Below are positions 2,564 to 60,282 of a stretch of 64,000 bases of DNA, piece after piece. This DNA comes from a virus (lineage: Duplodnaviria > Caudoviricetes). The position numbers and the translations under genes are program-made. Location: IMG/VR virus record IMGVR_UViG_3300021399_000157, positions 3,032 to 67,031 of that record, one strand, 5' to 3'. Every line of letters starts with the position of its first letter. Positions within the stretch are counted from its first letter, which is position 1. The notes under the pieces were generated by a model. That model made no database searches. It was not told the origin of the DNA and saw nothing but the letters and a program-made list of their open reading frames with translations.

Positions 2564-2782
2564 TTACTCCTTTACATTTTTGAATTCATTAATTAAATTA
2601 TCTACTGACTTAAGACTTACTAACATCATAAAGCAATATAATGCAAAATACATATATCCAAATGTTTTTGTTGTTGTTACAATTATGTATGTTGTCCATA
2701 ATACTGCAGGTGTACTAATTAAAAATATAACTAGGTTTAAAACTGAATTCCATTTTACTTTCATATCCTTATCTCCTTTCAT
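2564..2782 (-). CDS. Small two-TM membrane protein (likely start 2764)
   Basis: Two hydrophobic stretches; first gene after the early promoter. Confidence 0.6.
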   Translation of the reverse strand: MKGDKDMKVKWNSVLNLVIFLISTPAVLWTTYIIVTTTKTFGYMYFALYCFMMLVSLKSVDNLINEFKNVKE

Positions 2783-2793
2783 CTTATAATTCC

Positions 2794-2822
2794 ATTTTAT
2801 ATGATGTCTTTGTACAAGTCAA
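2794..2822 (-). promoter_or_regulatory. Sigma70-type promoter for the phage A early operon
   Basis: TTGACT-17 bp-TAAAAT on the minus strand. Confidence 0.65.
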
Positions 2823-2846
2823 TATAATATTATGGTAAATTTTAAA

Positions 2847-2875
2847 TTGTACACTTTAATGTCAAATGATATAAT
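2847..2875 (+). promoter_or_regulatory. Divergent sigma70-type promoter for the HNH-like gene
   Basis: TTGTAC-17 bp-TATAAT. Confidence 0.6.
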
Positions 2876-2890
2876 AAAGATGGTGATTAA

Positions 2891-3178
2891 ATGAATATAA
2901 AGACTTTAGAAAAAAATAGATATTCAATTTTAATTAATGACTTATCTAGATGTTATTTTTGTGGTAAACCTAAAAATCACTTACACGAGATATACTTTGG
3001 TAAGAATAGAATTAACTCTATGAAATATGGTTGTGTAGTTCCTTTATGTGCCTCTTGTCATTCAAAAGTACACTCCAATGTAGAATTAGACCTAAAACTA
3101 AAAAAACTCTGTCAAAAAAGATTTATTGAAGTCTATGATGATGATTTCTTATCTATCTTTAGAAAAAATTACATATAA
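2891..3178 (+). CDS. Small zinc-binding HNH-fold nuclease-like protein
   Basis: CYFC...HLHEIYFG...PLCASCHSKVH. Confidence 0.7.
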   Translation: MNIKTLEKNRYSILINDLSRCYFCGKPKNHLHEIYFGKNRINSMKYGCVVPLCASCHSKVHSNVELDLKLKKLCQKRFIEVYDDDFLSIFRKNYI

Positions 3179-3205
3179 AAAACAGGATTATATGTCCTGT
3201 TTTTA
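3176..3205. terminator. Bidirectional intrinsic terminator
   Basis: AAAAAACAGGA-ttatatg-TCCTGTTTTT between convergent genes. Confidence 0.75.
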
Positions 3206-3321
3206 TTTTGCTTTAATAAATGCCTTTATTTTGCATTTTATGTTTTAAATGAATAATTATACTATCTTTATCTTAATCGTTAAATTTGACCTGTTTCTGT
3301 TAGTCTAGAGGTATAATTTAA

Positions 3322-4122
3322 TTATATCTTTATTAATTTACCTTTTTTTAGTAAATCTAGCATCTTTTTATTTTGACTAGGTAAACCTACATAAGCAGTT
3401 ATTCCATTCTTTTTTGCTATCTTCTTTCTATAACTAAATGAACTATCTACCCCTATTGCTTTTAATCCATCTACTATACTTACTGATTTACCTGTATATT
3501 TTTTGTAATAAGATACACTAGGTTTAGTTTCTTTTTTTAATGGTGGTAAATATTGAAATTTTATATTTCTTGTTTTTAATACTTTTGTGAAGTTTTTATC
3601 TATATAAAATATATCTTCAGGTTTTCTACAATCTCCTTTAGTTACATATTTTCCTCTAGAATTTTTTACTGATTTATTAGCACTTCCTATTCCACAAGTA
3701 AAATGTAAATGATTAGCAGTTGCAGTTTCTTTACCTTCCAAGCATATAGGTTCTCCTGCTTTAAACACTTTTCCTTTTTTTATTCCAAATTTCTTTACAT
3801 CACTATCTTCAAAATGTACTGCAGTCATAAATATTTGATGATAACCTATTGGTGTATGTACTTTTTTTGTTGATACTAAAAATACTTTGTTAGATACTTT
3901 ACCATTACCTATTCCTTGTACATTTGTTACTTTCATATCTATAGGACTAAAAAGATAATCTCTCCCACCATCTTCTCCTCCCAAATCAGTAGGAAAATCT
4001 TTTGGTGTAGCACCATACCAATGTGCTTTGTGATTTCCTTCATTGTATGATTGAGTAATTTTCATATAATGCATAGGAAATTTAGCATAATCTTCATATC
4101 CTTTTGTAAAATGAAATGCCAT
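3322..4122 (-). CDS. Endolysin, M23-type metallopeptidase with C-terminal cell-wall binding domain
   Basis: H...D and NHLHF zinc motifs; Lys-rich C-terminal domain; follows holin; RBS GAGGAG favours start 4122. Confidence 0.75.
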   Translation of the reverse strand: MAFHFTKGYEDYAKFPMHYMKITQSYNEGNHKAHWYGATPKDFPTDLGGEDGGRDYLFSPIDMKVTNVQGIGNGKVSNKVFLVSTKKVHTPIGYHQIFMTAVHFEDSDVKKFGIKKGKVFKAGEPICLEGKETATANHLHFTCGIGSANKSVKNSRGKYVTKGDCRKPEDIFYIDKNFTKVLKTRNIKFQYLPPLKKETKPSVSYYKKYTGKSVSIVDGLKAIGVDSSFSYRKKIAKKNGITAYVGLPSQNKKMLDLLKKGKLIKI

Positions 4123-14324: not shown

Positions 14325-15182
14325 TTATAGACTTGCGCTTGGTGTTCCATTATAGATAATTAAATCATCCATAACTGCTTTTGTTCCTTTATATGCAAAT
14401 AGTCCAAATGCAGTTGCATCACTTAAATCTACTTTAGTTGGATTGTAAATAGAAGTCATAACAGGTTGCGCTACTGCACCACGAACCATAACTATATAAT
14501 TTACTCCTGCAGGTAAGAATACACTAGAGTAAACATTTACATTGTTGAATGTTCCTTGTTCATAGTTTCTTACTTGTCCTAAATCATTTGAATTAGAAAT
14601 AGAGTTAATCTTGTTTCTTAATTTTCCATAATATGCAGGTGACATAACTATTTCAATCATATTTCTAGGTACACCATTTACATATTGATTTTTAGTAGTT
14701 TCTACTTTTTGGATTGCTTCCTCAATTTCATCTTCAATTGATGCTCCTGAAGTTGCAGTAAATTGAGTTCCTTCTGCTACTGCTTCTGCAAAAAACTTTG
14801 TATCAAGTTCTACTGCTAGTGCATCTTGATGATTTCTAGTTCTACGAGAAATTAGTCCATCTACACCATAAGTTCTTAAGTCTTTTTCTTCAACTTCTTC
14901 TAAATATTCAGTATTATCATTAATTGATATTACTACAGGATTTGCTTTTACATATTGTCCTTTTCCACCTGTTCTTGCAGTACCATAAGTTTGTCCTATA
15001 ATATTAGCAAATCTTTTTGCTTCAATAGTTCCTGTACTAGGGTCACCACTTAAATCTTGATTTTTTAATCTAGAAGCAAGTGTAATGTGTTGTAAGTTTT
15101 CAATTACTTTACCATATGCTTCTGCTAATTTGTCTTTTCCACTTGTTGTTAATTCAATGCTTAATGCATCTAATCTTGCCAT
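14325..15182 (-). CDS. Major capsid protein
   Basis: 285 aa after scaffold; HK97-fold-like ending AFGLFAYKGTKAVMDDLI. Confidence 0.75.
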   Translation of the reverse strand: MARLDALSIELTTSGKDKLAEAYGKVIENLQHITLASRLKNQDLSGDPSTGTIEAKRFANIIGQTYGTARTGGKGQYVKANPVVISINDNTEYLEEVEEKDLRTYGVDGLISRRTRNHQDALAVELDTKFFAEAVAEGTQFTATSGASIEDEIEEAIQKVETTKNQYVNGVPRNMIEIVMSPAYYGKLRNKINSISNSNDLGQVRNYEQGTFNNVNVYSSVFLPAGVNYIVMVRGAVAQPVMTSIYNPTKVDLSDATAFGLFAYKGTKAVMDDLIIYNGTPSASL

Positions 15183-15203: not shown

Positions 15204-15734
15204 TTACCATAATTCAGGTATTTCTTTTGTATTATTTGTTTGTTCACTATCTCCCATACTTTCCATATCTTTTAATTGATTAGGATTTACAAATATATCA
15301 GTTTTGTCTTTTGTTAATTCATCAAACAAATCTTGAATACCTTTACCTTTATTTTCAGGTTTATTTAATCCTTCTTTAATATCATTTAAAAGACCTGTTC
15401 TAGCATATTCACTAGTGAATGTTTTGCCTTCAAAAAGGTTATTGATATTTTCTGTTAATATCTTTTCCTCTTCTTCTGCTTTTTGTTTTGCTTCTTGTTC
15501 CTTAATAGAGGTTTGCAACTCCTCATATTTAGTTTTCCAATCTGCATTGTCTTTAGCACTTTCATTAAACTCATTGATTTTAGTTTCATAAGTAGATATT
15601 TTGTTTTCTAACTCTTCTTTTTGATTTGTTAAGTTTTCAATCTCCTTATCTTTCTTTGTCATTGCTTTACCATATAATGACATTACCTTATCAACTTGTT
15701 CTTCATCTAAAAAGTCTAAATTTTCTCTTTTCAT
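15204..15734 (-). CDS. Capsid scaffolding protein
   Basis: EEQVDKVMSLYGK N-terminus, coiled coil, directly upstream of capsid gene. Confidence 0.75.
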   Translation of the reverse strand: MKRENLDFLDEEQVDKVMSLYGKAMTKKDKEIENLTNQKEELENKISTYETKINEFNESAKDNADWKTKYEELQTSIKEQEAKQKAEEEEKILTENINNLFEGKTFTSEYARTGLLNDIKEGLNKPENKGKGIQDLFDELTKDKTDIFVNPNQLKDMESMGDSEQTNNTKEIPELW

Positions 15735-16179: not shown

Positions 16180-16998
16180 CTAATATTGTTGATAAGTTCC
16201 TTTATCTATTTTTTCTCTGCACTTTTCTGCTCTTGCTTTTATTACAGGTCGCATATATTTATGTTTCATACTATCTAACATTTGTAATTGGTGTCCTATA
16301 TGACAAAATGCACTTGCATCCCAAAAACTACTTCTAACTAAAGATACACTATTATCATAGTTCATTCTATTCCATACATAACATATCTTTTTTAAATTAG
16401 TTACATTTTCATATTCAAGACCATCTGCAAGTTTATATGCCCATACTCTATCTTCCATTAAAGTATCTTCACAGAACCATACAATCTTATCCTTCCTGAT
16501 TACCTTTGACCAAGCAGTACACCATACATTGTTATTTAAAGACCATAAATCCTCATAACATTTTGCTTCATTAGTTGTTTGAAAATCTATACCATTCTTA
16601 CCTAGCATTTCACATCCAATAGTCATTAGTTCCTGATTATCTAGGTTGTTATCAATTGTTTCAAGAACATCATTATCCTTCCACCAATCATCACTATCTA
16701 AAAAACAAAAATAATCAAAATCTAAATTATCCATTGCATATTCCATTGCTACATTCCTAGAACCACCATTATATCTTTTTCTTCTGTTCTGTATAAGATG
16801 TATTCTTTTATCTTTATAACTTTTAATAGTTTCAACTGATGTATCAAAACTCATATCATCAACTATTACTAGATTAAAATCCTTGTATGTTTGATTTAAA
16901 ATACTTTCTATACAATTCCTTAAGTATGTTTTACCTTCATACTTACCTCTATCATTGTTGCAATTTGGTACTATAATAGCATATTTATATTTTGACAT
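16180..16998 (-). CDS. Glycosyltransferase family 2 (GT-A fold)
   Basis: IIVPNCN, CIESILNQTY, IVDDMSFDTS, GGSRNVA, FLDSDD (DxD), MED. Confidence 0.9.
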   Translation of the reverse strand: MSKYKYAIIVPNCNNDRGKYEGKTYLRNCIESILNQTYKDFNLVIVDDMSFDTSVETIKSYKDKRIHLIQNRRKRYNGGSRNVAMEYAMDNLDFDYFCFLDSDDWWKDNDVLETIDNNLDNQELMTIGCEMLGKNGIDFQTTNEAKCYEDLWSLNNNVWCTAWSKVIRKDKIVWFCEDTLMEDRVWAYKLADGLEYENVTNLKKICYVWNRMNYDNSVSLVRSSFWDASAFCHIGHQLQMLDSMKHKYMRPVIKARAEKCREKIDKGTYQQY

Positions 16999-18588: not shown

Positions 18589-19344
18589 TTAAATTACATT
18601 TGTACCATAACCATAAAAGTTACCACATCCACATCCATTTCCTAAAGTAGGATTTAATAAAGATTGATATGGACTAGACACTAAATAACTAGGTGTAGGT
18701 GTTGGTTGAAGTTTAGATAATAGGTTTGCAGTTTGCTCTCTATCACTTATGATATCTTTTGCTTCTGCAAGTCTATCTCTTAAATCTTGGATAGTGTTTT
18801 GAGTGATTAATGCTCTTGTTTGTTCACCATCTTCTCTAATTGCTTGTTTAATGTCACAACAACAATTGTCTAATCTTGCTAATCCTTGTAAACTAGTCAT
18901 TCCTAATTGGTTTTCTAATTGAGTTGTTTGAAGTAATATATCTCTTTGAGTATTTGCATTTCCCATTAGAATATCACTTCTTAAGTTACACAAGTTAGTT
19001 GCAGTATTATAGAACCCATTAGAAATATTAGAATTAATATCACTGCAACAATTACACAATTGAGTTGATAAGTTACCAAATCCTGTTGTAGTAGTATTAG
19101 ATAATTGACTAATATCTCTTTGAGTAAACTCACTAGATACAAAATCTGTTGTTGCAACATTATTCCATCCATTGTTACCAAATCCACCCCATCCACCATT
19201 ATTAAATAATAGTGCTAGAAGTACAATTGCCCATATTCCATCTCCACCAAATATTCCATTGTTGTTACCATACATAACAGGATATGGATATTGGTTATTT
19301 GTTGCTAGGTCAATTGTTGGTACTATTCCATTTTGTCCATTCAT
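18589..19344 (-). CDS. Gly/Asn-rich spore-coat-like protein
   Basis: GGDGIWAIVLLALLF-NNGGWGGFGNNG, QLCNCC, LDNCCCD, EDGEQTRALI, GCGCG tail. Confidence 0.6.
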   Translation of the reverse strand: MNGQNGIVPTIDLATNNQYPYPVMYGNNNGIFGGDGIWAIVLLALLFNNGGWGGFGNNGWNNVATTDFVSSEFTQRDISQLSNTTTTGFGNLSTQLCNCCSDINSNISNGFYNTATNLCNLRSDILMGNANTQRDILLQTTQLENQLGMTSLQGLARLDNCCCDIKQAIREDGEQTRALITQNTIQDLRDRLAEAKDIISDREQTANLLSKLQPTPTPSYLVSSPYQSLLNPTLGNGCGCGNFYGYGTNVI

Positions 19345-21227: not shown

Positions 21228-21635
21228 TTACATTAATCTTCTTCTTGCACCTGTAAGAGTTAGTTCATTCCTACTAGGTAAATTGCTTCCATTGTGTCTA
21301 ATCCCTCTTGCTAGTTCCATATCAATATACCTTTGATATCTATCTAGGATGCTTTGTGGTACTTCTATACCATACTCTTTACATCTGTCTAATGCCCATT
21401 GTGTAGCATAATACTCTTGCTCACATCTTCTCATCTTTGAATTGTTATTCTCACAATGACCAATCTCGTGTAACAACTCAAATGTTGCTAGGACACTATT
21501 CTTTGGATGCCACTTACATATCCTTCTTTCTCTTGGATGAATATGCATCCTACTTCTGCAAGTTGAATGTTCATCAATAGTAACTTTGTACTTACTGATA
21601 ATCTCATCTTGCAATTGCTTATGTGTTTTACTCAT
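21228..21635 (-). CDS. Zincin (HExxH) metallopeptidase-like protein
   Basis: LLHEIGH...EQEYYA motif. Confidence 0.7.
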   Translation of the reverse strand: MSKTHKQLQDEIISKYKVTIDEHSTCRSRMHIHPRERRICKWHPKNSVLATFELLHEIGHCENNNSKMRRCEQEYYATQWALDRCKEYGIEVPQSILDRYQRYIDMELARGIRHNGSNLPSRNELTLTGARRRLM

Positions 21636-21916: not shown

Positions 21917-23119
21917 TCACCTTAATCTATCGTATTTCATCTTAAGTCCACTAACTCTAGATAAGTCTTGATACTTCTTGTTAAGTTGTTTTAACTTGAT
22001 GTTACTCTTTATTACTTGTTCTTCATTATCACTTGCTTTTGCTATTGCTAGAGTGTCTTTAGTCTTTCTTATCTCTGTTTCTATTCTTCTTTGTAATTGT
22101 GTACCTTGATAATTAGTATAATGTACTCCATCAAACTCAAATCCTTTTTGATTTTGTTCAATGATGTCTTTTAGTTCTTCTTTAGAATAGTTAGGTTTAC
22201 TAACACCTAATACTATAGCAAATGTGTAATGATAGCAGTTATATTCTCCTATTGGTCTATGTGATAGACTACTTTTACCACTTGCTAGTTCTAAATGCAT
22301 ATCTATCTCTTCTCCATCATATGATTTAGCAACACCTGTTTCTTGCAACTTCTCATACTCTTCGTTAGAAAATTGTTTACCTTGTGCTTCTTGATGGTCA
22401 GGTGCAGGATTAAAATGTACACTTATTTCAACACCATCTGCATCAAACTCTTTACCTAATTGGTTTTGCATCTCTTCGTGCATATGTGTTAATCCACCTT
22501 TTAGGTTCATTCTTACTGCACTATCCATCCTTATGCTTCTACCACTATCATAATCTACACTTCTTATACCACTATCTCCTAGTTCTTTAATGGTCTTTCT
22601 CATAGCACTATCAAAATTTTGTTTACCTTGTCCAACATTTATTATTGCTTCATCTATTACATCTTGATAGGTTTCTGCTAGTGATGTGTATTCAATCTTA
22701 CCATTTACTACTCTTGCAAATGCTCTAGTTTTAGAAATATTTATATATTCTTTAGCAGTTATCTCTGCAAGTGCCTTTATTTGCCTCTTAAGTGCCTCAT
22801 TTTGCTCAAAAGGGATGTACTTAATAGATTTATACTCATAGAATTGTTTTGCAAATCTATAGTCGTTTTTTGCCACCTCTTCAAATATCTTATAAATATC
22901 CTTAACATTTAGTTCTGTTATTTCTGCTAATCTTTTAGCAATCTTATCATATCTACCACCATATTTTAGGATTTGTGCTAGTTCTTGTGCTTGTGATGGT
23001 GTTATTTCACCAAACTCTTTAATAGTTGCACCTATCTCTTCTAGTACATATTCATTACCTTTTTCTATTCTTCTAACTAATCTTTCTACTACTTTATCAA
23101 TTAGTTCTTCACTTAACAT
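21917..23119 (-). CDS. Minor capsid protein (MuF/A118 gp4-like)
   Basis: DSAVRMNL, EISVHFNPAPDHQEAQGK, YNCYH, QRRIETEIRKTK. Confidence 0.85.
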   Translation of the reverse strand: MLSEELIDKVVERLVRRIEKGNEYVLEEIGATIKEFGEITPSQAQELAQILKYGGRYDKIAKRLAEITELNVKDIYKIFEEVAKNDYRFAKQFYEYKSIKYIPFEQNEALKRQIKALAEITAKEYINISKTRAFARVVNGKIEYTSLAETYQDVIDEAIINVGQGKQNFDSAMRKTIKELGDSGIRSVDYDSGRSIRMDSAVRMNLKGGLTHMHEEMQNQLGKEFDADGVEISVHFNPAPDHQEAQGKQFSNEEYEKLQETGVAKSYDGEEIDMHLELASGKSSLSHRPIGEYNCYHYTFAIVLGVSKPNYSKEELKDIIEQNQKGFEFDGVHYTNYQGTQLQRRIETEIRKTKDTLAIAKASDNEEQVIKSNIKLKQLNKKYQDLSRVSGLKMKYDRLR

Positions 23120-24501: not shown

Positions 24502-26040
24502 CTATTGTCCTCTCTTCTTCCATATATTATTTAATGCATAGCGTGTGGCATCTATGCAATGGTTGTTTGCATCCACATATCCACTTATGTAATTGTCATC
24601 TTTATCCTTTTCATATTCATATGTACTAAACTCTTCAGTTGCTTCAGGGCATCTTTTAGGGTCTATAACTATTTTTGCTAATGCACTTAACCACTTCATA
24701 GAATATTCAACACTTCCTGCACCTTTTTCTGCACCTCTCATAGAAGCACCATAACTTCTAAAATCTCCTATTGATTTAGGTTCTGCACTATCACTTATAA
24801 TCATATCATTCTCTGTAACTCCCTTTAGGTTCTTTAAATCCTCCCATACATCTGCATTACTTTTCTTATTTACCACATACTCATCAAATATATATAAAGT
24901 CCTAGTTGATGGATTAAACGAACACTTTATCCAAGCAAGAGGGTCAGGAAACCATCCAAAGTCCATTCCCATATAAATATAATCAAAGTTCTCTATCTCT
25001 TTATCAGTTATTTCTCTTAACTCTATATTTTCAAATACTTGACCACCTACACCTGTCATTAATCCTAGATATTCATTCTCATATAACTTCTCATTGATGC
25101 TCTTTAGAAATTCTGCTTCATCTATAAATGCTTGACCTAACCACTTTTTAGGTACTGCTCTATAATCACTTAAGTGTACTAGTCTAGTATCTTTTGGTAT
25201 TAACTTCTCTATATTTACAAAGTGTTGTGTACTTGCAGGTGTATTATATGAATAGAATTGAATAAAATCATCTCCACCTCTTATTAAGGATTGATTTATT
25301 TTTCTTGTTTCATTCATTCCTGCAAATTGGTCAAACTCTTCATACCAAGTTATACCAACATACATATCTTTTGGTGTCTTTAATGATTTAATCTTTCCAT
25401 AATCATCTGCACCTCTAAAGTATATCTTTTGACCTGTACTTAATTTAGTTATCTCTAAAGGTGATTTAGTAAACTTATAATCCTCTTTAATATGTGGATA
25501 TGTTTCTCCTAGTGTATCTACTGCCCATTCTAATTGACTAAATACACTATCCTTTAATGTATCTTTAACTTTTCTTAATACAACACAACACATTTTAGGA
25601 TTTTGTTCTAGTAGTTCAATTATCTTTTCACTTATAAAAGATGATTTGGTACTACCTCTTCCACCTTCTAGATAAAACTCTCTATAATCTCTATCATCTA
25701 TTGCTCTATTTACATCTGCAAAACTAGATGCTATATCTTTAGCAGGTAATACAACATATACTTCTTGCTTCTGTTCATCGTGGTCTTTCTTATCCATTAA
25801 ATCTTGTATTATTTGATAGTTCTTACTACTACCACTTACTGCACCTTTTATTAATCCTAAAGTTGCTAACTCTTGATATGTCTTACCACTTTTTTGCTCT
25901 GTTTGATTTAATAGCATCTCTAGGTCTTGTATCATAGTTCTTTTTCTTCTTCTTGCTTCTCCTGATGCTATTCCACCTTTCTTCGCTTCCTCTTCAGTTA
26001 ATTTGTGTCCTTGAGGTATTAGGTTTTGTTCGTTTGCCAT
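24502..26040 (-). CDS. terL: Terminase large subunit (PBSX-like) with N-terminal TerS-like KGG extension
   Basis: Walker A GGRGSTKS, Walker B WYEE, nuclease GMDFG and NHCIDATRYA; N-terminal MANEQNLIP...AKKGGIASGEARRRKR. Confidence 0.92.
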   Translation of the reverse strand: MANEQNLIPQGHKLTEEEAKKGGIASGEARRRKRTMIQDLEMLLNQTEQKSGKTYQELATLGLIKGAVSGSSKNYQIIQDLMDKKDHDEQKQEVYVVLPAKDIASSFADVNRAIDDRDYREFYLEGGRGSTKSSFISEKIIELLEQNPKMCCVVLRKVKDTLKDSVFSQLEWAVDTLGETYPHIKEDYKFTKSPLEITKLSTGQKIYFRGADDYGKIKSLKTPKDMYVGITWYEEFDQFAGMNETRKINQSLIRGGDDFIQFYSYNTPASTQHFVNIEKLIPKDTRLVHLSDYRAVPKKWLGQAFIDEAEFLKSINEKLYENEYLGLMTGVGGQVFENIELREITDKEIENFDYIYMGMDFGWFPDPLAWIKCSFNPSTRTLYIFDEYVVNKKSNADVWEDLKNLKGVTENDMIISDSAEPKSIGDFRSYGASMRGAEKGAGSVEYSMKWLSALAKIVIDPKRCPEATEEFSTYEYEKDKDDNYISGYVDANNHCIDATRYALNNIWKKRGQ

Positions 26041-26186: not shown

Positions 26187-26486
26187 TTATTTTCTTTTCT
26201 TATTTTCTTTTTCCCATTCACTATATGTAAAACTATCCCATTTTGAATGTGTTGCACCTGATTTACTTACAGGTGGTTTTTTATATTTTTCTTCAAATCT
26301 ATCTACTAGATTATCCACATTATCTTGCCACCAACTACCATAGTCTGCTACATTTTCATTATCATAGTAACTTTCTTCTTCAGGTTCTTTTGCTTTTGCT
26401 ACTGCTTTCTTGCTTGTTTTTTGTATCTTACCTTTGCTACTTGATGCACCTCTTCCACCAAATAATTGTATATTTAACTCTAACAT
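26187..26486 (-). CDS. FGGRG-leader protein 5 (unknown function)
   Basis: Starts MLELNIQLFGGRGASSS. Confidence 0.75.
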   Translation of the reverse strand: MLELNIQLFGGRGASSSKGKIQKTSKKAVAKAKEPEEESYYDNENVADYGSWWQDNVDNLVDRFEEKYKKPPVSKSGATHSKWDSFTYSEWEKENKKRK

Positions 26487-27148
26487 TATTTTAACCTCAC
26501 TTTCACATATATATTACCATTCTTACTCCCTACACTCTCAACTTTATACTTTTGATTTCTTGCAAGTAATACCTCTTTTTGTGGGTCTCTTGCTTCTACC
26601 TCTCTTATCCTTTTAGTAGGTTTCTTCATTATATCCAATCCTCTAGTCTTTTTATTTGTATGTATTTCCATAATGATTGGTTTTGTACTACCAAAAAAGT
26701 ATTTGTTATTTTCTGCTATTCCTAAACTCTTTGTTGTACTCATAAATCCTTTTTCTGTATGGTCTTTATTAATGGCATTGTTTATCCTGTTATTTACTTG
26801 TTTTGCTATACCTTGTGAATATGCACCATTTCCTTTTGAATAAACTCCATATACTAGTTCTTCTACCATATTTGCATATTCACCATCTGTCATATTTCCA
26901 AATATTGCACTTGCATCTGTGGTTCTATATAATATTTCATCCTTTATTTTGTCATTAGTAAGTATATCTAGTTCTTTTAAATATACTTTATCATCATCAG
27001 TAAAGTCTATCTCATCATCTAATCCTCTTAAGTAGTTATTTATCCACATTCCTTGACCACTTACATAATATTCTAAAGACATATCATAGTTGCCTGTTGA
27101 TGATGTAGCACCTCTGCCTCCAAATAGTTGTATATTAAGTTTTAGCAT
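26486..27148 (-). CDS. FGGRG-leader protein 4: R-S-E clade (VIP2/C3-like) ADP-ribosyltransferase
   Basis: MLKLNIQLFGGRGATSS; INNYLRG, LYRTT, GFMSTT, QKEVLLARN. Confidence 0.85.
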   Translation of the reverse strand: MLKLNIQLFGGRGATSSTGNYDMSLEYYVSGQGMWINNYLRGLDDEIDFTDDDKVYLKELDILTNDKIKDEILYRTTDASAIFGNMTDGEYANMVEELVYGVYSKGNGAYSQGIAKQVNNRINNAINKDHTEKGFMSTTKSLGIAENNKYFFGSTKPIIMEIHTNKKTRGLDIMKKPTKRIREVEARDPQKEVLLARNQKYKVESVGSKNGNIYVKVRLK

Positions 27149-27157
27149 ATATACCTC

Positions 27158-27706
27158 CTAAATCATCTTAACTCTTTTGTTATCAAACACTATATATTCT
27201 CTTTCTTTACCTTGTACATTTAATTTTGCTATTACTACATCATACTTTTTACTTTTAGCAATTTTCTTCAAATCTATATTACCCTTCATTAATTGGTGGT
27301 TCCCTATTTGTTGCCATCTTTTCATATTTTGTATAAATGCTTCTTCTCCATCTAACTTACCTATAGGACTTGCATATTTATATAACTCTTTAAAATCTTT
27401 TACTTTTGCAAAATCCAATGGTTTATTTACATTTATTTTAGCATTATAAACTCTACCTTTTGCACCTTTTTTATCAAAAAACATACTATCTGTTTCTATT
27501 CTTTCATAACTAAAATCATCTGCAAATTGTTTGCTATCTGTAAAATAAATACCATATTCACCTGATGATGTATTTAATCCTGATAAAGATATATCAAAAC
27601 TTTCTATGTTAGCATTTGGACTTCCGTGATATAATGTTCTTTTTATTATGCTATTACTAAAACTTGCACCCCTACCTCCAAATCTTTGGATATCTAAATC
27701 TAACAT
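27158..27706 (-). CDS. FGGRG-leader protein 3: H-Y-E clade ADP-ribosyltransferase-like (ART-PolyVal-like)
   Basis: MLDLDIQRFGGRGASFS; LYHGS, GIYFT, EYIVFD. Confidence 0.7.
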   Translation of the reverse strand: MLDLDIQRFGGRGASFSNSIIKRTLYHGSPNANIESFDISLSGLNTSSGEYGIYFTDSKQFADDFSYERIETDSMFFDKKGAKGRVYNAKINVNKPLDFAKVKDFKELYKYASPIGKLDGEEAFIQNMKRWQQIGNHQLMKGNIDLKKIAKSKKYDVVIAKLNVQGKEREYIVFDNKRVKMI

Positions 27707-27708
27707 AT

Positions 27709-28095
27709 CTATCTACCTATTGCTTTCAATATTTGTTTTTTTCTTTCATCTATTATGTTTTTAGCATTTGCTATTGCTTCTTTTCTAGTTGAACCTGTTG
27801 TTATCATTGCCCCATTTGTTTCATTATTTGTTCTTACTACTGCTACATATTTACTACTACCTGCCCTACCTAAATATGGTCTGTTTTTTGCATATGCTTC
27901 TTGTTCACTATTGAATACACCAACATCTATTGTTTTATATCTAAAAGTAACACCCTTTACTTCTATATCTTCTCTTCTACCATCCTCATCCATATTTCTT
28001 GTTGCAGTTGTAAAAGTTGCACTTTTAGGTTCTGTATCTGCATTGCTACTACTAGAACCTCTGCCTCCAAACATTTGAATGTCTAGTTTAATCAT
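27709..28095 (-). CDS. FGGRG-leader protein 2 (unknown function)
   Basis: Starts MIKLDIQMFGGRGSSSS. Confidence 0.75.
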   Translation of the reverse strand: MIKLDIQMFGGRGSSSSNADTEPKSATFTTATRNMDEDGRREDIEVKGVTFRYKTIDVGVFNSEQEAYAKNRPYLGRAGSSKYVAVVRTNNETNGAMITTGSTRKEAIANAKNIIDERKKQILKAIGR

Positions 28096-29119
28096 TCTTC
28101 TTCATCCTCTCTGTTACTTTATTTTCATAATATATTACCTCTATGTCTCCATAGTTATATTCTAATTTACCACCATACACTAGTATTTTAGATGGTTTTA
28201 TCTTTTTAATCATTGCATCCATTCCATCTTTCCATATCTTTAGTGCATCTGTATTTCTTTTTACTCCAATTGTACTTATTGATACTATGCTTCCTTCAGG
28301 TATTCCATCAAAACAAAAATCAAATGTTTCTTCTTCTGCCCAACTTATTGTAGGTATTACCTTTATTCCACATCTTTGATAATATTGTCCAATTAGTCTG
28401 CTTCTATATATATTCCATATCTTCATTGCTATAGGCATATCCATATATAAACTAAAATCAGGACTTAATATGCAATCATAATCTCCTAATACTTCAACAT
28501 ACTCTTGTGGATTATTCCATATTCTTTCAAATTGATAATCATCTAGATAAAAATGTATTCCTACATTCTTGTTTTCACTTGTTTTAGCATAATTAAATCC
28601 CATCAAATCTTTAGGTACATAATTATCATTCTCTATAATAGGCATTTGGTATTTACCATCACAGGCATCTGCATCAAATAGTTCTAGGTTATATGCTTCA
28701 TTGGTTCTTTCTCTTTCATTGATTTTTATTTCAGGTACTTCTATTTCAGGTACTTCTATATCAAATCCATACTTTTCCATATCTATATCTAGGATTTTGT
28801 TTATCTCATCCTGTACCATATCTAAATCCCAAGCAGTATTCATTGTTAATTGATTATGTACTAATAAATATGCTCTTCTTTGCTCATCTGTTAGATAATC
28901 TAACTTAATTACAGGTACTTCTTTTAATCCTAAATCTTTACAAGCAAGGTATCTACCATTACCTTCTACTATCTCATTATTCCATATTGCTATAGGGTCA
29001 TTCATACCAAACTCTTCAATAGATGCTTTTATTTGGTCTATTTGACTTTGTGGATGTAACTTTGCATTTTTATCATATAATCTTAAAGTATCTATGTTTA
29101 CATATTCTATTTGTAACAT
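28088..29119 (-). CDS. ParB/Srx N-terminal domain fused to DUF4417-like domain
   Basis: N-terminal QIKASIEEFGMNDPI..GNGRYLA; C-terminal HFYLDDYQFERIW, PDFSLY.DMP, VIPTISW, FCFDG. Confidence 0.8.
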   Translation of the reverse strand: MLQIEYVNIDTLRLYDKNAKLHPQSQIDQIKASIEEFGMNDPIAIWNNEIVEGNGRYLACKDLGLKEVPVIKLDYLTDEQRRAYLLVHNQLTMNTAWDLDMVQDEINKILDIDMEKYGFDIEVPEIEVPEIKINERERTNEAYNLELFDADACDGKYQMPIIENDNYVPKDLMGFNYAKTSENKNVGIHFYLDDYQFERIWNNPQEYVEVLGDYDCILSPDFSLYMDMPIAMKIWNIYRSRLIGQYYQRCGIKVIPTISWAEEETFDFCFDGIPEGSIVSISTIGVKRNTDALKIWKDGMDAMIKKIKPSKILVYGGKLEYNYGDIEVIYYENKVTERMKKND

Positions 29120-29121
29120 AT

Positions 29122-29523
29122 TTATCTCCTAAAATTATATTCTTTCCCTGTTTTTCTATCTCTTATATATATTGTTCCCTTATATTGATTATATGAAACA
29201 TAAGGGTCTTTAATTCCACCATCTAATGCATCTTGATATATTCCACCTAGTTCTTTTAAATATGACATTGTATATCCACCTGTATTGCTCATAATATATT
29301 TATTGTTTACATATAATGCATTATCAAATGATGTAATATCTAATCTATTTGATAATTCTTTTCTTATTTCTACATTATCACTTAATCTATATCCTGTTGG
29401 ATTATTGTATTCATCTCTTGCTTTTTTTGTCCATTGTTTTGTTCTATTTGTTATTTTTACATTTATATTGCTACTAGAAGAAGCACCTCTGCCTCCAAAC
29501 ATTTGTATATCTAGTTTTATCAT
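29122..29523 (-). CDS. FGGRG-leader protein 1 (unknown function)
   Basis: Starts MIKLDIQMFGGRGASSSS. Confidence 0.75.
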   Translation of the reverse strand: MIKLDIQMFGGRGASSSSNINVKITNRTKQWTKKARDEYNNPTGYRLSDNVEIRKELSNRLDITSFDNALYVNNKYIMSNTGGYTMSYLKELGGIYQDALDGGIKDPYVSYNQYKGTIYIRDRKTGKEYNFRR

Positions 29524-29553
29524 ATTATCACCTTTTTAATTATAACATTATAT

Positions 29554-29976
29554 TTAAAATCTTTCAAATCTACCATTGATGTAATTATCTTTTATCAAAA
29601 CTCTACCTTTAGATGTATGTAATCCTTCAAATCTTCTTTCAAAGTCTAATAGCATCTTTTTAATTTCTAATAGGTTCTCTACATCCAAATGTCCTTTCAT
29701 CTTTTGAAATATCATCTGCATTGTAATATCTTCAAACATTTCCCTGTCATACTGCTCAATTAGATGTAAATATTCGTGAGATGTATCCTGTACTAGTATT
29801 ACACCATTCCAATATTTATATCCATCTCCTAATCCCTGTTTCCTACATTCTCTTTTAGGTACTATTAAGTGATGAAAAGATAAACTACTATTTCTGTTTA
29901 CATTATATCCCATAAAGTCATATCCAAGTTTTCTTATGTTAAAATCCCTTATCATTAACTTTGATACTTCTTGCAT
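29554..29976 (-). CDS. HNH-like protein (homolog of 63313-63696)
   Basis: LSFHHLIV...NGVIL...SHEYLHLIE. Confidence 0.6.
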   Translation of the reverse strand: MQEVSKLMIRDFNIRKLGYDFMGYNVNRNSSLSFHHLIVPKRECRKQGLGDGYKYWNGVILVQDTSHEYLHLIEQYDREMFEDITMQMIFQKMKGHLDVENLLEIKKMLLDFERRFEGLHTSKGRVLIKDNYINGRFERF

Positions 29977-40944: not shown

Positions 40945-42288
40945 TTGAAAAAAGTTATACGTGTCGGCGGATATGCTAGGGTATCTACTGAGGAACAAAA
41001 AAAATACGGATATTCTATAGACGCTCAGGTAGATAAAATAAAAAAGTATTGTGAATTAAAAAATTATCAACTTGTAGATATGTTTATAGACGAAGGCTTT
41101 ACTGCTTCTAATATGAAACGTCCTAGACTTCTGGATCTTCTTAATAGTTTAGATAAAATAGATGCTATAGTATTTACTCGTCTAGATAGATTTTCTCGTA
41201 ATGTATTAGAAGCTAATAAAATGCTAGCTACGTTACAAAAAAATAGCGTTAGTATGATAGCTATAGAAGAAGAAGATATAAATACTACGGACGCTGACGG
41301 TCTCTTTATGTTTCAATTAAAGGTATCGTTAGCTGAGCGTGAAATAAAAAAAACGTCGGAACGTATCCGCTCTGTATTTGAGTATAAAATCAAAGAAGGA
41401 CAGGTTATATCTGGAGTTACTGCTCTAGGTTATAAGATAGCTACTGTAGACGGAATAAAACGTATGGTTAAAGACGAAGACGAAGCTCCAATAGTTATGG
41501 ATATTTTTAATTACTTTCTAAAATACCAGTCTATACGTGTTGTTACTGATCTTATAAATAAAAAATATGATATAAAAAAGAGTTATCAAGTATACAACCA
41601 CTTATTAAAAAACGAAATATATATAGGTAAGTATCGTAATAATGATAATTTTGTAGATCCGTATATTGATAAAGATACTTTTGATAAAATACAGAAACTT
41701 ATAACTAAAAATATCCGTACTGGAGATAAAAAGTTTACTTATATATTTAGCGGTCTTATTCGTTGTCCTGAGTGTAAAAAGCTACTTACTGGTACTAGAA
41801 CTCTATATAGAGGTCGTTACTACTATTATTATCGTTGTAATAGGCACTACATTTCTAAATGGTGTAGTATGAATAAAAGCTGTAGTGAAAACTTGATAGA
41901 AAAATATCTACTAGAAAATATAGAAACTTTAGTATCTGATCGTATAGCTTATATTAAATCTGTTGAGCCTGCGGATAATGTAAATATTGAAAAAGAAATA
42001 AAGTCTTTACGTGCTGAGCTTGATAACTTAAATTATATCTTTATGAAAAAGCGTATTTCTGTAGCTGAGTATGATCGTCTTTATGAAAAAACCGAAAGTA
42101 AAATAAAAAAGTTGGAGTTATCTCCTTCTAAAAGTGCCGATACTTCTCATTTAACGGCGTTTTTATCTAGTGGCTGGAGAAACGGCTACGATATTATGAA
42201 TAGAGAAAATAAGCGTACTTTATGGCGTAATTTAATTAAAGAAATACACTGTGATAGAGACTATAATATAGAAATTATTTTTTACTAA
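40945..42288 (+). CDS. Large serine recombinase (integrase)
   Basis: YARVST catalytic Ser, RLDRFSRN, recombinase domain, CPEC..C..C zinc ribbon, coiled coil; TTG start. Confidence 0.95.
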   Translation: MKKVIRVGGYARVSTEEQKKYGYSIDAQVDKIKKYCELKNYQLVDMFIDEGFTASNMKRPRLLDLLNSLDKIDAIVFTRLDRFSRNVLEANKMLATLQKNSVSMIAIEEEDINTTDADGLFMFQLKVSLAEREIKKTSERIRSVFEYKIKEGQVISGVTALGYKIATVDGIKRMVKDEDEAPIVMDIFNYFLKYQSIRVVTDLINKKYDIKKSYQVYNHLLKNEIYIGKYRNNDNFVDPYIDKDTFDKIQKLITKNIRTGDKKFTYIFSGLIRCPECKKLLTGTRTLYRGRYYYYYRCNRHYISKWCSMNKSCSENLIEKYLLENIETLVSDRIAYIKSVEPADNVNIEKEIKSLRAELDNLNYIFMKKRISVAEYDRLYEKTESKIKKLELSPSKSADTSHLTAFLSSGWRNGYDIMNRENKRTLWRNLIKEIHCDRDYNIEIIFY

Positions 42289-56367: not shown

Positions 56368-58056
56368 CTATATAACTTGGATAGCGAAGTCCATTTGATT
56401 TAGGAATACGTCTTGTTGTAGTAGATATATAGCGTTTAGCATTGAAACTACCATATCTACTTTTCCTGTTGATTTCTTCTTATGTACGTACATATTTTTA
56501 TTTGTGTCATACGTACAGCGTGCATTCTGGAAGTTAATCTCCAGAAGTGTATTATTTTCATATTGGAACTCTTTCGCTAGTATCTTTTCTTTTAGTAACT
56601 TTGTAGGTGGGTGTAATACGCTAGAATGCTGTCTGATTTCAACGCAGTTATATCCTGCTCTTTCTAGTTTCTGAGCTGTACTAAGTGCGTTCCACCTATC
56701 GTATCCTATAGCTTGGATCTGTACTCCGTATTTATCCTCTAGATTTAATATAAAGTCCTCTACTACTGCGTAGTCTATTACTTTATCTCCGCAGGCTATT
56801 ACTTTTCCTGATCTGATTAATTCTCTATAGTTTACCTTCTCTGTTACTGTCTTTTCTTCTATTCTTCCTTCTGGAATAAATGCGAAGCTGTCGGCTAATA
56901 CGTTGTTATCGTCGTCTACTGTTACCATACTTACGCTGGTATTATCGTTACTTTCTGATAAGTCAAGCCCTACATAAACTATTCTGCCTTTCCAGTCTAT
57001 TTTAGCTTGTTTGCATTCCTGCAAGTCTTTTACGTCTATATATGTTTCTGTTCCTGTTCCCTGATATATGATATTACAATGTTTTGTTACGAAGTTTTCT
57101 CTAGCACTTTCTACAGCTATTGCATAGGCTCTTTTCTTTACTAGGTCGTCCCAGATCTCTGGTATTTCTAGTGCTACTGGGTTGCTTTGTTTTAGGATCA
57201 TATCGTCCGTTTCCCAGTCCTTCGCCTTATCTGGCTCGTATAATAAGCTAAAGCGTGTTTCGTCCTTCTCTAGCCCGTCTAATACTTTTTTTGAGTACTT
57301 TACTTCGTCTTCAAACGGGTTATCTATTGTCGGGTATTTTGTGCTGATTATAAAGCCTAATTTATTTAGTATATTTAATTGTCCTGACTTCATACTCTCG
57401 ATAGCGTAACTTGTTGGTAAAGCTCCTGCTTCGTCTACTATGAAGGCGTTCGGTAATCTTCCGTCTAGTCTACTGGTAGAATAACTTAACGGAATGTACG
57501 TTACCTGAGTTGGCTTGAAAAGAATATAATCTCTCAGGATCTTAAATCTTTTCGTATCTTTGTATTCGTATATTAACGGTGAACTCCTGATTATTTCGCT
57601 TATTGCTTCTCTGACTTCTCTAGATAAGGCACCGTCTGGAGCTACACTAAAGAACTTACTAAACTTCGGCTCTGTTAAAAATAGAAGTATAAAAATAGTT
57701 GCTATTGTGAATGTTTTAAAGTTCTTTCTACATATCTCTAAAAGCCCTATTTCATATCTTCTTTTCTTTTCATTGTCTCGATACACAGTACAAAGAATAG
57801 CAATATAAAAAAGCCATTGATAACCTGCGGTACATTCGTATAGCGTCTGTCCTGCTTTTAGTCCCTTCGGCATTATTAACAGCTTTAAAATGTTATTCAC
57901 TTGTTTTAATTTCTGCTCGCTAATTTTATATTTGCTGTCTTTATCTTCGCAAATGTTTACGAAGTCCTGCATCTGCAATTTAACATATTTAGGAGTAGTC
58001 TTTTTGCTTATTGATAACTTGCAATATTCTAACGCTTTATTATGCATAGTCGTCAC
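56368..58056 (-). CDS. terL: Terminase large subunit (cos/HK97 type)
   Basis: ICRKNFKT, IVDEA, GLDLS, YDRWNA, GKVDMVVSM. Confidence 0.93.
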   Translation of the reverse strand: MTTMHNKALEYCKLSISKKTTPKYVKLQMQDFVNICEDKDSKYKISEQKLKQVNNILKLLIMPKGLKAGQTLYECTAGYQWLFYIAILCTVYRDNEKKRRYEIGLLEICRKNFKTFTIATIFILLFLTEPKFSKFFSVAPDGALSREVREAISEIIRSSPLIYEYKDTKRFKILRDYILFKPTQVTYIPLSYSTSRLDGRLPNAFIVDEAGALPTSYAIESMKSGQLNILNKLGFIISTKYPTIDNPFEDEVKYSKKVLDGLEKDETRFSLLYEPDKAKDWETDDMILKQSNPVALEIPEIWDDLVKKRAYAIAVESARENFVTKHCNIIYQGTGTETYIDVKDLQECKQAKIDWKGRIVYVGLDLSESNDNTSVSMVTVDDDNNVLADSFAFIPEGRIEEKTVTEKVNYRELIRSGKVIACGDKVIDYAVVEDFILNLEDKYGVQIQAIGYDRWNALSTAQKLERAGYNCVEIRQHSSVLHPPTKLLKEKILAKEFQYENNTLLEINFQNARCTYDTNKNMYVHKKKSTGKVDMVVSMLNAIYLLQQDVFLNQMDFAIQVI

Positions 58057-58408
58057 TACCGTTTATAGCTTTTAGTAGTGGATCTTCTTCTACTTCTGTA
58101 TCCTCCTCGTCTACATTATAGTTCTTGATAATTTTCATTAATGTAGATACAGTTCGGTTAGCACTATCTGTAGTTGTATTGTATTCTCTTAATGCTGGGT
58201 TAGAATATAAGTTTTTTCTTCCTTTTACATATTCCTTCGTGACTAGCATACCGTCGTCCTTCATTCTTTTTTCTAATTCTGTTAGCATATTTAACTGAAC
58301 TTGATACCTCTTGAATGTAGTAATAAAAAAGAAATTGCTTTGTACTCCGCTTTCTTCTGCTATTCTAATTATCTCTTGTGCCTGCTCGCTTAAACTCATT
58401 TTTGCCAT
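58040..58408 (-). CDS. terS: Terminase small subunit (P27-like)
   Basis: DGMLVTKEYVKGR..NPAL; directly upstream of terL. Confidence 0.8.
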   Translation of the reverse strand: MAKMSLSEQAQEIIRIAEESGVQSNFFFITTFKRYQVQLNMLTELEKRMKDDGMLVTKEYVKGRKNLYSNPALREYNTTTDSANRTVSTLMKIIKNYNVDEEDTEVEEDPLLKAINGSDDYA

Positions 58409-59247: not shown

Positions 59248-59258
59248 TTCATTTCCTC

Positions 59259-60281: not shown

Positions 60282-60282
60282 A

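Follow-up and report, generated by a model that had tools for sequence, protein, structure and literature searches.

Why should five small, otherwise unrelated proteins in a phage of gut bacteria begin with one and the same short peptide, and why should that peptide look like the propeptide of the ribosomal protein L27? The proteins are encoded in a 64,000-nucleotide stretch of a Caudoviricetes genome (positions 3,032 to 67,031 of IMG/VR record IMGVR_UViG_3300021399_000157; hereafter the window), where the start pattern M-x-x-L-[ND]-I-Q-x-F-GGRG-[AS] stands on exactly five ORFs, all on the minus strand: MIKLDIQMF-GGRGASSS (start at 29523), MIKLDIQMF-GGRGSSSS (28095), MLDLDIQRF-GGRGASFS (27706), MLKLNIQLF-GGRGATSS (27148) and MLELNIQLF-GGRGASSS (26486). 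Residues 4–9, the P6–P1 region, read L-[ND]-I-Q-[MRL]-F in all five leaders, and behind each of them the GGRG motif begins at residue 10. A six-frame regular-expression search of the complete 67,031-base record found no leader outside the five ORFs, the back-translated core of leader and tag (TTYGGNGGNMGNGG) was observed five times versus zero in 100 shuffles, and the looser pattern G[GSA]RG[AGS] matched only once more in the window, in the Walker A loop (GGRGSTKSS) of the large terminase. Similarity among the five proteins is confined to the first 16 residues and the remainder is unrelated. Pairwise, the leader codons are identical at 17–24 of 27 bases and the 20 bases 5′ of them at about 4–11 of 20, with synonymous positions of the leader codons differing in most pairs, showing that conservation lies at the level of the peptide and not in a recent DNA repeat. 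The leader is also missing from the scaffold protein (15204-15734) and from the capsid protein (14325-15182). This rereading agrees with the initial annotation, which had picked out the same five starts, called the ORFs otherwise unrelated, and described the leader as exclusive to them, counting scaffold and capsid among the ORFs without it.

The five tagged genes form a compact same-strand cassette with a DUF4417 gene, one of them lying upstream of it and four downstream. Cargo gene 1 (29122..29523, minus; 133 aa; mature pI 9.6), with its leader MIKLDIQMF (nine codons) and tag GGRGASS (seven codons) at 29476..29523 (minus), precedes the ParB_N-DUF4417 gene (28088..29119, minus; 343 aa; DUF4417, PF14386, 2.8e-79), which itself carries no leader. 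Cargo gene 2 (27709..28095, minus; 128 aa; leader MIKLDIQMF and tag GGRGSSS at 28048..28095, minus) shares its first 8 bases with the end of the DUF4417 gene. Cargo gene 3 (27158..27706, minus; 182 aa; leader MLDLDIQRF and tag GGRGASF at 27659..27706, minus) encodes an ART-PolyVal ADP-ribosyltransferase (Pfam 1.6e-14), with candidate H-Y-E residues in the segments that begin at residues 26 (YHGS), 52 (GIYF) and 169 (REYIVF). Cargo gene 4 (26486..27148, minus; 220 aa; leader MLKLNIQLF and tag GGRGATS at 27101..27148, minus) encodes a C3/exoenzyme-type ADP-ribosyltransferase (Pfam ADPrib_exo_Tox 4.4e-14), with candidate R-S-[QxE] residues in LYR (from 73), STT (from 137) and QKE (from 190). Cargo gene 5 (26187..26486, minus; 99 aa, Lys-rich; leader MLELNIQLF and tag GGRGASS at 26439..26486, minus) is the last gene before the large terminase TerL (24502..26040, minus; Terminase_3 and 3C), which starts 147 bases further on. 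Pfam gave no family for cargo genes 1, 2 and 5, and the mature forms of all five cargo proteins are basic (pI 8.8–9.7). Thus Pfam corroborates both the two ADP-ribosyltransferases (ARTs) and the placement around a ParB-DUF4417 gene, with the terminase just downstream, that had been noted from the sequence. The region's best sigma-70-like promoter match (29539..29567, minus; TTGAAA-17-TATAAT with TG, 11/12) lies just upstream of cargo gene 1, as a hint only, such matches showing no enrichment there. A second phage module in the window, to which its S78 protease belongs, has ParB-only genes and neither DUF4417 nor tagged genes.

A link of the motif to DUF4417 and packaging genes in other phages had been predicted, and it proved strong: 75 of 80 viral DUF4417 loci have one or more tagged genes in the 4 kb downstream. 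The tags at these 80 loci comprise 108 M-GGRG starts, 8 L27-type leaders and 11 cases of a third class in which GGRG is internal, behind a 72-residue N-domain, and M-GGRG starts outside the loci numbered only four in the other 937 kb. Conversely, DUF4417 lies just upstream of 34 of the 53 MGG[RS]GAS matches that an ORF of 60 aa or more follows, the matches without it being mostly MGGSGAS or situated within longer frames. All leader loci with sufficient flank have DUF4417 directly upstream, frequently with overlapping stop and start codons. The pairing is kept across three different terminase/portal/head modules, and loci L026–L029 share the layout of the window, with the cassette just upstream of the terminase genes. 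Homologues of the window's exo-ART (43–45% identity over nearly the full length) begin MGGRGA and align from window residues 7–9 onwards, which makes the leader an addition to the shared form. In some phages with Prp hosts, leader and M-GGRG forms occur side by side. The window cassette is, almost certainly, a member of a DUF4417-GGRG system in which the L27-like prefix is the minority form (8 vs 108 M-GGRG starts), and the comparison supports GGRG as the functional constant of the tagged proteins. We found no paper on the GGRG tag or on its pairing with DUF4417; the system is widespread in phages and without a published description, and its link to an L27 leader is new.

Is the leader, then, a substrate of Prp, the host protease that matures L27? 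As the initial annotation stated, the window has no Prp-like gene, and the phage record contains neither a Prp nor an L27 homologue. The comparison of host L27 and Prp was made with carrier or related-prophage genomes. In four genomes with leader-GGRG prophage genes, Prp is encoded beside an L27 bearing the extension, and the host and phage peptides pair as MNLNIQLF|ASKK with MLELNIQLF|GGRG, MLKLDLQFF|AHKK with MLRLDLQYF|GGRG, MLKINIQLF|AHKK with MEKLNLQLF|GGRG, and MLKISLQFF|AHKK with MLKLDLQHF|GGRG; the P6–P1 string LNIQLF of the window recurs identically in L27 of genomes G001 and G040. The extended host L27 and prp gene that had been proposed as a check were thus present in four of five genomes with leader-GGRG genes and in three of three with a related TerL, one of which (prophage TerL 78% identical to that of the window) has an L27 reading ..QLNIQLF|AHKK. 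The fifth leader-GGRG genome, a MAG labelled Bacteroidales, has a short L27 and no Prp, and its leader-bearing contig was probably mis-binned.

One feature departs from the known substrates. P1′ is Gly in 18 of 18 aligned leaders. To our knowledge Ala occupies this position in every established Prp substrate, and we found no literature data on Gly there. L27 and the proteins of phage 80alpha carry Ala at P1′ (PMC9405229), and binding of P1–P3 is described as what mainly sets Prp specificity (PMC9261936). Prp cuts the capsid and scaffold proteins of 80alpha, and its motif has also been noted on non-homologous phage proteins, the phage 80 capsid and a phi13 tail protein (PMC5744158); 80alpha can do without the cut in its capsid protein (PMC5744158), and a Prp motif therefore need not mean function. 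Judged from the alignments, the leader mimics the host L27 propeptide, and a cut by Prp is plausible and fairly likely. The earlier suggestion of such a cut therefore stands as regards the match to the L27 propeptide and the presence of Prp in carrier genomes, and is weakened by Gly, not Ala, at P1′.

We propose that the five ORFs form an accessory cassette of the DUF4417-GGRG system in which Prp exposes GGRG and ParB-DUF4417 handles the tag, a composite reading on which we regard the balance as level. An enzyme-like DUF4417 protein, which in the window has a ParB-type NTPase domain as well, would pair with swappable, mostly effector or toxin proteins whose sole common part is an N-terminal Gly-Gly-Arg-Gly-(Ala/Ser)-Ser label. 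Methionine aminopeptidase favours Met-Gly, and in most phages, where the label comes straight after the start Met, removal of that residue would yield an N-terminal GGRG. In the window phage nine L27-propeptide-like residues precede the label, and a cut by host Prp after Phe9 would yield the identical N-terminus, in keeping with the initial annotation, which had derived a shared GGRG end from this cut and is seconded by the many relatives that begin M-GGRG directly. Its further suggestion, that the leader keeps toxic ARTs latent, is unlikely, given homologues of the same ART that have no leader. The point of the window leader seems to be the new N-terminus and not removal itself, and two proposed routes that end in one label would mark the free GGRG N-terminus as the part that acts. 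The internal GGRG of the N-domain class, on the P side of which we found no shared protease site, suggests that a free N-terminus is perhaps dispensable or that another cut is made. The label would be a handle read by ParB-DUF4417, because DUF4417 is the only constant partner; gene linkage makes it reasonably likely that DUF4417 handles the tag, processing, modifying or loading the effectors late in infection. The leading purpose would be effector delivery with the virion or virion DNA into the next cell, although such loading and co-injection, argued by analogy, is put forward only tentatively. The initial annotation had likewise read GGRG as a possible tag for virion loading, or else for conjugation.

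The DUF4417 protein itself has the conservation pattern of an enzyme, as far as its sequence tells: identity is about 50% across a GC range of 29–55%, and numerous acidic and aromatic positions are invariant, among them the Asp residues D193, D194, D215 and D221. Clustered at 50% identity, the family falls into about 3,400 clusters. In the structural model, residues 1–93 of the window protein adopt a ParB/Srx fold and residues ~165–337 a TIM-barrel-like domain predicted to be closest to TGT/DpdA. VIA-align placed the modelled domain nearest to ArcTGT 1iq8 (Z 10.0; 164 residues, rmsd 3.0), DpdA 7ui4 (Z 9.4) and QTRT2 (Z 9.4), other TIM barrels reaching at most 8.0; Foldseek returned only ParB matches and weak TIM matches, and hhalign detected no sequence relationship between DUF4417 and TGT/DpdA (probability <1%). 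It is conceivable, as a long shot, that ParB-DUF4417 acts on DNA in the manner of DpdB/DpdA, with the tag taking the part of incoming nucleophile that otherwise falls to a free base, and so links effectors to phage DNA by a covalent bond. The attacking group would be either the exposed alpha-amine of Gly1 or the guanidinium of the invariant Arg, held out on a flexible, Gly-rich arm. Effectors bound in this way would accompany the genome through packaging and injection, or else the DNA would be marked with peptide; Met removal and the Prp cut would both free the N-terminus. Fpg/Nei, T4 endonuclease V and SRAP/YedK have their N-termini freed through Met removal. DpdA and DpdB combine a TGT-fold TIM barrel with a ParB-superfamily NTPase (PMC10164549; 7ui4), and the window phage would have the two folds in one polypeptide. 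DUF4417 differs in being about half the size of TGT, and the predicted likeness is one of fold, without sequence relationship; the cassette genes scanned included none recognised as serving deazaguanine synthesis, and Dpd lacks tagged proteins, the hallmark of the DUF4417-GGRG system.

The cassettes might alternatively serve the producing cell: the toxins or effectors would act from there in abortive infection, superinfection exclusion or the killing of competitors after lysis, with DUF4417 activating, processing or exporting them, virions uninvolved, and the site before the terminase merely giving late expression. We consider this rather unlikely, but it accounts for several observations. DUF4417 occurs in 35 of 300 sampled Clostridia genomes, mostly stand-alone, with an ImmA/IrrE-type peptidase upstream and genes for proteins with related Gly-rich heads (MGAG.GGNFGNTKG.., MGGRG..), some bearing Ntox50, following it; no packaging genes were found within the ~1.5 kb flanks of these chromosomal cassettes, which argues against virion loading as a universal role. 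The cargo bodies are of effector type (ARTs, a Gln deamidase toxin, zincin-like proteins, JAB), these being polymorphic toxin domains, and a close relative of the window phage lacks the whole cassette, which is thus not needed for morphogenesis. Against this, the abutting or overlapping genes leave the window cassette no space for immunity genes, no export signal or secretion gene was recognised among the scanned window proteins, and the phage cassettes lie almost invariably just upstream of terminase genes in modules of various types. That location, at the head of a packaging operon near TerL, portal and a MuF-like Phage_min_cap2 gene (21917-23119; 400 aa, with no further domain and no toxin), would suit GGRG as a capsid-targeting peptide read by a portal, scaffold or MuF-like protein, much as the capsid-targeting sequence (CTS) of T4 is read by the scaffolding core, DUF4417 being an unrelated neighbour such as a DNA-modifying anti-restriction enzyme. 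The cargo is basic, as are the T4 internal proteins, and T4 packages the ART Alt (PMC9026906). We nevertheless find this improbable: the tag accompanies three unrelated terminase/portal/head sets, with or without scaffold or S78 protease, its constant partner is DUF4417 and no structural protein, and 80alpha proteins are cut by Prp before assembly (PMC5744158), so that the leader cannot hold cargo in proheads.

Two further readings concern the prefix alone. It might be kept uncut, either as a neutral or translational extension or as a Prp decoy that slows host L27 maturation during infection, and five co-expressed copies would make a high decoy dose. Gly at P1′, versus Ala in L27 and the 80alpha proteins (PMC9405229), could slow or abolish cleavage, and the M-GGRG forms imply that the cargo works without a leader. 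Yet P6–P1 is as strictly conserved as in L27 and tracks the host L27 sequence, the junction of leader and GGRG always falls at the Met position of relatives, and a decoy would not need diverse enzyme bodies, all of which makes an uncut prefix hardly probable. The short N-terminal peptide ending in Gly-Gly also recalls leaders of the double-glycine type, cut after Gly-Gly by a C39-type peptidase/ABC exporter as in bacteriocins. Here the 11-residue leader fits the double-glycine consensus poorly, no such peptidase/exporter was recognised among the scanned window proteins, and most relatives would shed Met-Gly-Gly only; we regard this reading as extremely improbable.

Set beside known systems, the proposed Prp-exposed, DUF4417-handled label shares elements with three besides Dpd. 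As in the Prp substrates pro-L27 and 80alpha capsid and scaffold (PMC9405229, PMC5744158), L-[ND]-[LI]-Q-x-F stands directly before the mature chain, and as in 80alpha a host ribosomal signal is borrowed by proteins of a phage without its own protease. The known phage substrates, however, are structural and cut at F|A, whilst the five candidate substrates of the window are of effector type, are not structural and read F|GGRG, and in relatives a bare Met can take the place of a leader of the window type. The CTS on IPI–III of T4 (PMC9026906) is likewise a ~10-residue N-terminal peptide common to proteins that are basic, variable and otherwise unrelated; an ADP-ribosyltransferase, Alt, is among the packaged members, and the T4 arrangement has been proposed for loading diverse cargo (PMC9026906). 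But the CTS directs its proteins to the scaffolding core, and gp21 removes it in the prohead by cleavage behind Glu (PMC9026906), whereas the window leader ends Q-x-F and would be removed in the cytoplasm by a host protease, what is conserved stays on the protein after that cut, the constant partner is DUF4417, and encapsidation is only proposed; no prohead protease was recognised among the scanned head-module genes of phage A. MuF toxins and polyvalent proteins (PMC5576092, PMC5512222) resemble the cassette in their ART, ART-PolyVal, deamidase, zincin, JAB and ParB-type domains, in their exchangeable toxin bodies and in being encoded, in temperate Firmicutes phages, within the DNA-packaging module, and the cargo bodies match segments of giant polyvalent-protein profiles. 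There, a giant polypeptide joins effectors to MuF or to one another; in the window they are separate small tagged proteins, the two ARTs of 182 and 220 aa being fused neither to MuF nor to other effector domains. The polyvalent-protein paper mentions neither the DUF4417 pairing nor the tag.

If the proposal holds, it would describe a general address-label system in phages whose hosts are gut Bacillota or streptococci and, judging by composition, in actinobacterial phages too, in which one conserved enzyme serves many swappable effectors that have only a short N-terminal peptide in common, a third solution next to the T4 CTS and the MuF/polyvalent fusions. DUF4417 would gain its first functional context, and the range of Prp, studied as an antibiotic target, would extend from ribosomal and structural proteins to effectors. 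Exposure of the same label by Met removal or by a hijacked, essential ribosome-maturation protease offers a natural experiment, and cultured carriers, namely S. pyogenes A25/A1, S. pneumoniae MM1 and the Roseburia phage Jekyll, are open to direct tests.

The cassette of phage A, the module that occupies the window from position 1 to about 40,900 and carries a Terminase_3, an SPP1 portal and a scaffold, consists of six tightly packed minus-strand genes. Five encode the cargo proteins 1 to 5, and the sixth, a ParB_N + DUF4417 gene without a leader (29119-28088; 2.8e-79), lies between cargo 1 (29523-29122) and cargo 2 (28095-27709) and is followed by cargo 3 (27706-27158), with an ART-PolyVal domain (PF18760, 1.6e-14), cargo 4 (27148-26486), a C3/exoenzyme-type ADP-ribosyltransferase (PF03496, 4.4e-14), and cargo 5 (26486-26187). 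All five cargo genes start with M-x-x-L-[ND]-I-Q-x-F, a nine-residue leader resembling the propeptide of ribosomal protein L27, joined directly to the tag GGRG-[AS]-x-[SF]. The initial annotation had described five such ORFs, a scaffold and capsid free of the leader, and the absence of a gene for Prp, the host L27 protease; these points were borne out, since scanning all six frames of the 67-kb record, an IMG/VR contig, confined the leader to the five cargo ORFs, the phage A scaffold and capsid sequences lack it, and neither Prp nor an L27 homologue is encoded in the record. The back-translated leader-tag core occurs five times in the window and in none of 100 shuffles. Past residue 16 the five proteins show no relatedness, and in pairwise comparison of the ORFs the leader codons have 17-24 of 27 bases in common whilst the flanks look random, which argues that selection acts on the peptide. 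A double-glycine leader reading of the shared starts was rejected. Both ART cargos hold candidate catalytic residues. Cargos 1, 2 and 5 had no family match in Pfam or PHROGs, the 133-aa cargo 1 gave no usable match in the ESM Atlas (top TM 0.37), and tblastn of the exo-ART cargo 4 against named phages returned none. Genes for TerL, a portal of SPP1 type and a MuF-like protein (Phage_min_cap2) lie on the 3' side of the cassette. The P-loop of this TerL (window about 25640-25670, minus strand) reads GGRGSTKSS, close to the tag form GGRG[AS]SS; P-loops of this form also occur in 28 TerL genes of DUF4417 loci, and the resemblance is probably a coincidence.

Scanning viral and genomic sequences with the pattern M-x-x-L-[ND]-x-Q-x-F-GGRG recovered 10 viral and five genomic loci. 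In four of these genomes, which are MAGs from Clostridia or Erysipelotrichaceae, the Prp gene adjoins an L27 with an N-terminal extension and the phage leaders are similar to the L27 that the host itself encodes (host LNIQLF/ASKK and phage MLELNIQLF/GGRG in genome G001; LDLQFF/AHKK and MLRLDLQYF/GGRG in G004; slashes mark the known or predicted cut). The fifth, a MAG labelled Bacteroidales, has a short L27 starting MAHKK and no Prp, and the 35-kb contig that carries its two tandem leader-GGRG genes (JAZQOJ010000183.1) is therefore probably a mis-binned Bacillota phage. A prophage with a TerL 78% identical to that of the window resides in an AT-rich genome of small size whose family is that of G001, and this genome encodes Prp and an L27 reading ..QLNIQLF/AHKK, of which residues P6-P1 are identical to two of the window leaders. 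The extended host L27 and the prp gene on which the initial annotation relied are thus both present in four of the five leader-GGRG genomes and in the genome with the related TerL. Prp cuts at F/A, removing the extension of L27 as well as the N-termini of the capsid and scaffold proteins of 80alpha, and its motif is present on phage structural proteins that are not homologous to one another (PMC9405229; PMC5744158); binding of P1-P3 is the main determinant of its specificity (PMC9261936). Given the host L27 and Prp matches together with these published substrates and specificity, cleavage of the leaders after F9 is plausible; MLKLNIQLFGGRGASSS is a candidate leader-tag substrate peptide, with the cut predicted after F9. 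The cargo leaders differ from the published F/A sites in their P1' Gly, which is without precedent. At one further locus (L081) an 84-aa ORF starting 7 bases past the DUF4417 stop begins MGGRGAFSTSHPK and continues MLKINIQLF-AQ, so that the tag precedes an L27-type leader with a canonical F/A; this ORF may be a recombination scar or have a mis-called start.

At every leader locus with enough flanking sequence the DUF4417 gene lies immediately upstream, its stop often overlapping the start of the tagged gene, and the pairing recurs with three different packaging/head modules (TerL_ATPase, Phage_portal and S78 protease; Terminase_6N, SPP1 portal and min_cap2; Terminase_3, SPP1 portal and Mu_F). 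A search of viral contigs with an alignment of ParB-DUF4417 proteins yielded at least 522 relatives, of which the best 80 loci were analysed, and tagged genes were present within 4 kb downstream in 75 of these 80. By prefix, the 80 loci hold 108 M-GGRG (or M-GSRG) starts, 8 L27-like leaders and 11 conserved 72-residue N-domains, the rest of their sequence (937 kb) containing only four M-tag starts; the five tagged genes of the window are the joint highest count among them. In the reverse scan, for gene starts MGG[RS]GAS with an ORF of 60 aa or more behind them (n = 53), DUF4417 lay just upstream in 34, including phages of GC 0.6-0.69, the remaining matches being mostly MGGSGAS or inside longer frames. 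The predicted association of the motif with DUF4417 and packaging genes therefore holds in both directions of search and across the three module types. Named carriers include S. pyogenes phages A25, A1 and Str01, S. suis phiNJ2, S. pneumoniae MM1, Roseburia phage Jekyll and Dorea phage DO134P1, and each of these genomes labels its tagged genes as hypothetical.

Only a minority of a much larger tag family carries the leader as its prefix. It is an add-on, since homologues of the exo-ART cargo (43-45% identity over nearly the full length) start MGGRGA, their alignments beginning at cargo residues 7-9, and deamidase and zincin-like bodies are likewise known with MGGRGA-type starts. A cut after F9 would restore the same N-terminus that removal of Met would give in these relatives, and this convergence is the strongest argument for cleavage and for a free GGRG end as the functional element. 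The third class of tagged proteins, termed MM1-type, combines the conserved 72-residue N-domain with an invariant GGRG, a Gly-rich linker and a JAB/JAMM domain (E..HxH..S..D), as in ORF29 of S. pneumoniae phage MM1 (5570-6316 of locus L111) and at 2723-3481 of locus L012, with further members in L037, L057, L075 and others. The AF2 model is confident (pTM 0.88) and has a folded N-domain and the JAMM motif. A ubiquitin-like nature of the N-domain was unsupported, the top matches being weak (YkuJ, Z 4.3) and only the C-terminal JAB being recognised. Because the residue preceding GGRG varies in this class (E, K, F, H, A or G), it has no common P-side protease site.

DUF4417 forms about 3,400 clusters at 50% identity, comprising ParB fusions and stand-alone proteins, and retains about 50% identity across GC 29-55%, and numerous positions in it are invariant (Asp, aromatic residues and Arg). 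In the AF2 model of ParB-DUF4417 (mean pLDDT 78; DUF4417 domain mostly >85) the N-terminal part adopts the fold of ParB/Srx (Z about 12) and the DUF4417 part is TIM-barrel-like, matching ArcTGT (Z 10.0), DpdA (Z 9.4) and QTRT2 (Z 9.4), compared with Z ≤8.0 for generic barrels. Foldseek with the whole model recovered nothing beyond the ParB part and weak TIM matches. Comparison by hhalign of 154 aligned DUF4417 sequences with only two TGT sequences gave a probability of 0.3-0.8%, which provides no sequence support and speaks neither for nor against a relationship to TGT. As DpdA requires the ParB-superfamily ATPase DpdB (PMC10164549), the modelled union of ParB and a TGT-like barrel in one fusion is suggestive of a parallel with DpdA/DpdB. 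The one published remark found on ParB-DUF4417 fusions describes them as phage-enriched and of unknown function (bioRxiv 10.1101/2025.10.10.680097), and two papers that mention DUF4417 treat it solely as an uncharacterised domain or annotation label.

The initial annotation had interpreted the cassette as effectors loaded into the virion, and of this interpretation the L27-like leader and the link with DUF4417 and packaging genes stand, the virion role being limited by chromosomal cassettes. In 300 sampled Clostridia genomes DUF4417 was found in 35, mostly stand-alone and then followed (loci L242-L271) by proteins that begin with related Gly-rich heads, for example MGAG.GGNFGNTKG.. and MGAGYHGGFG..., two of which carry Ntox50; at L242 a Peptidase_M78 (ImmA/IrrE-like) gene lies upstream of DUF4417. 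The cassette is also wholly absent from a close relative of phage A and is thus accessory. Its absence there, the chromosomal forms in Clostridia and the MM1-type class fit handling of the tag by DUF4417 better than reading of the tag by a head protein. The best reading is that the cassette belongs, as a variant matured by Prp, to an undescribed effector-tag system that depends on DUF4417; cleavage is likely, a link between the tag and the DUF4417 enzyme is probable, and delivery of the tagged proteins with the virion is conjectural. Full-text literature search found the leader-GGRG strings (LQFFGG, LQLFGG), MGGRGA and MGGRGS in no phage-context publication, a literature search for the DUF4417-GGRG pairing found no published description, and L27 leaders go unmentioned in the polyvalent-protein paper; both this pairing and the link between L27 leader and GGRG are apparently undescribed in the literature searched.

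The second module of the window (42,718-64,000) is HK97-type with an S78 protease, and a serine recombinase gene (40945-42288, plus strand) lies between it and phage A. With two different morphogenesis modules, the record probably represents two adjacent prophages or a chimeric assembly; in the sequence collection the window cargo proteins lie on contigs of ≤33.7 kb. In the second phage, two ParB-only genes (60815-61417 and 60283-60831), a radical-SAM gene (59259-60281) and a gene with an S-AdoMet-synthetase N-domain (58453-59247), all on the minus strand, stand directly upstream of a small ORF of no family (58040-58408; TerS by position only) and TerL, and the region 58453-61417 is a candidate DNA-modification module. 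The presence of DUF4417 in this phage was refuted with a DUF4417-only HMM, by which both ParB genes are ParB-only; neither DUF4417 nor tagged genes were found there.

Just downstream of the MuF-like gene, phage A encodes a 135-aa protein with a HEIGH zincin motif (21228-21635, minus strand) and a weak PHROG match to metalloprotease (7.8e-4), which may correspond, as a separate protein, to the hub metallopeptidase of polyvalent proteins. A GtrB-like glycosyltransferase gene (16180-16998) and a gene for a Gly/Asn-rich 251-aa protein (18589-19344), both on the minus strand, lie between the portal/MuF and scaffold/capsid genes, an unusual insertion in a head module.
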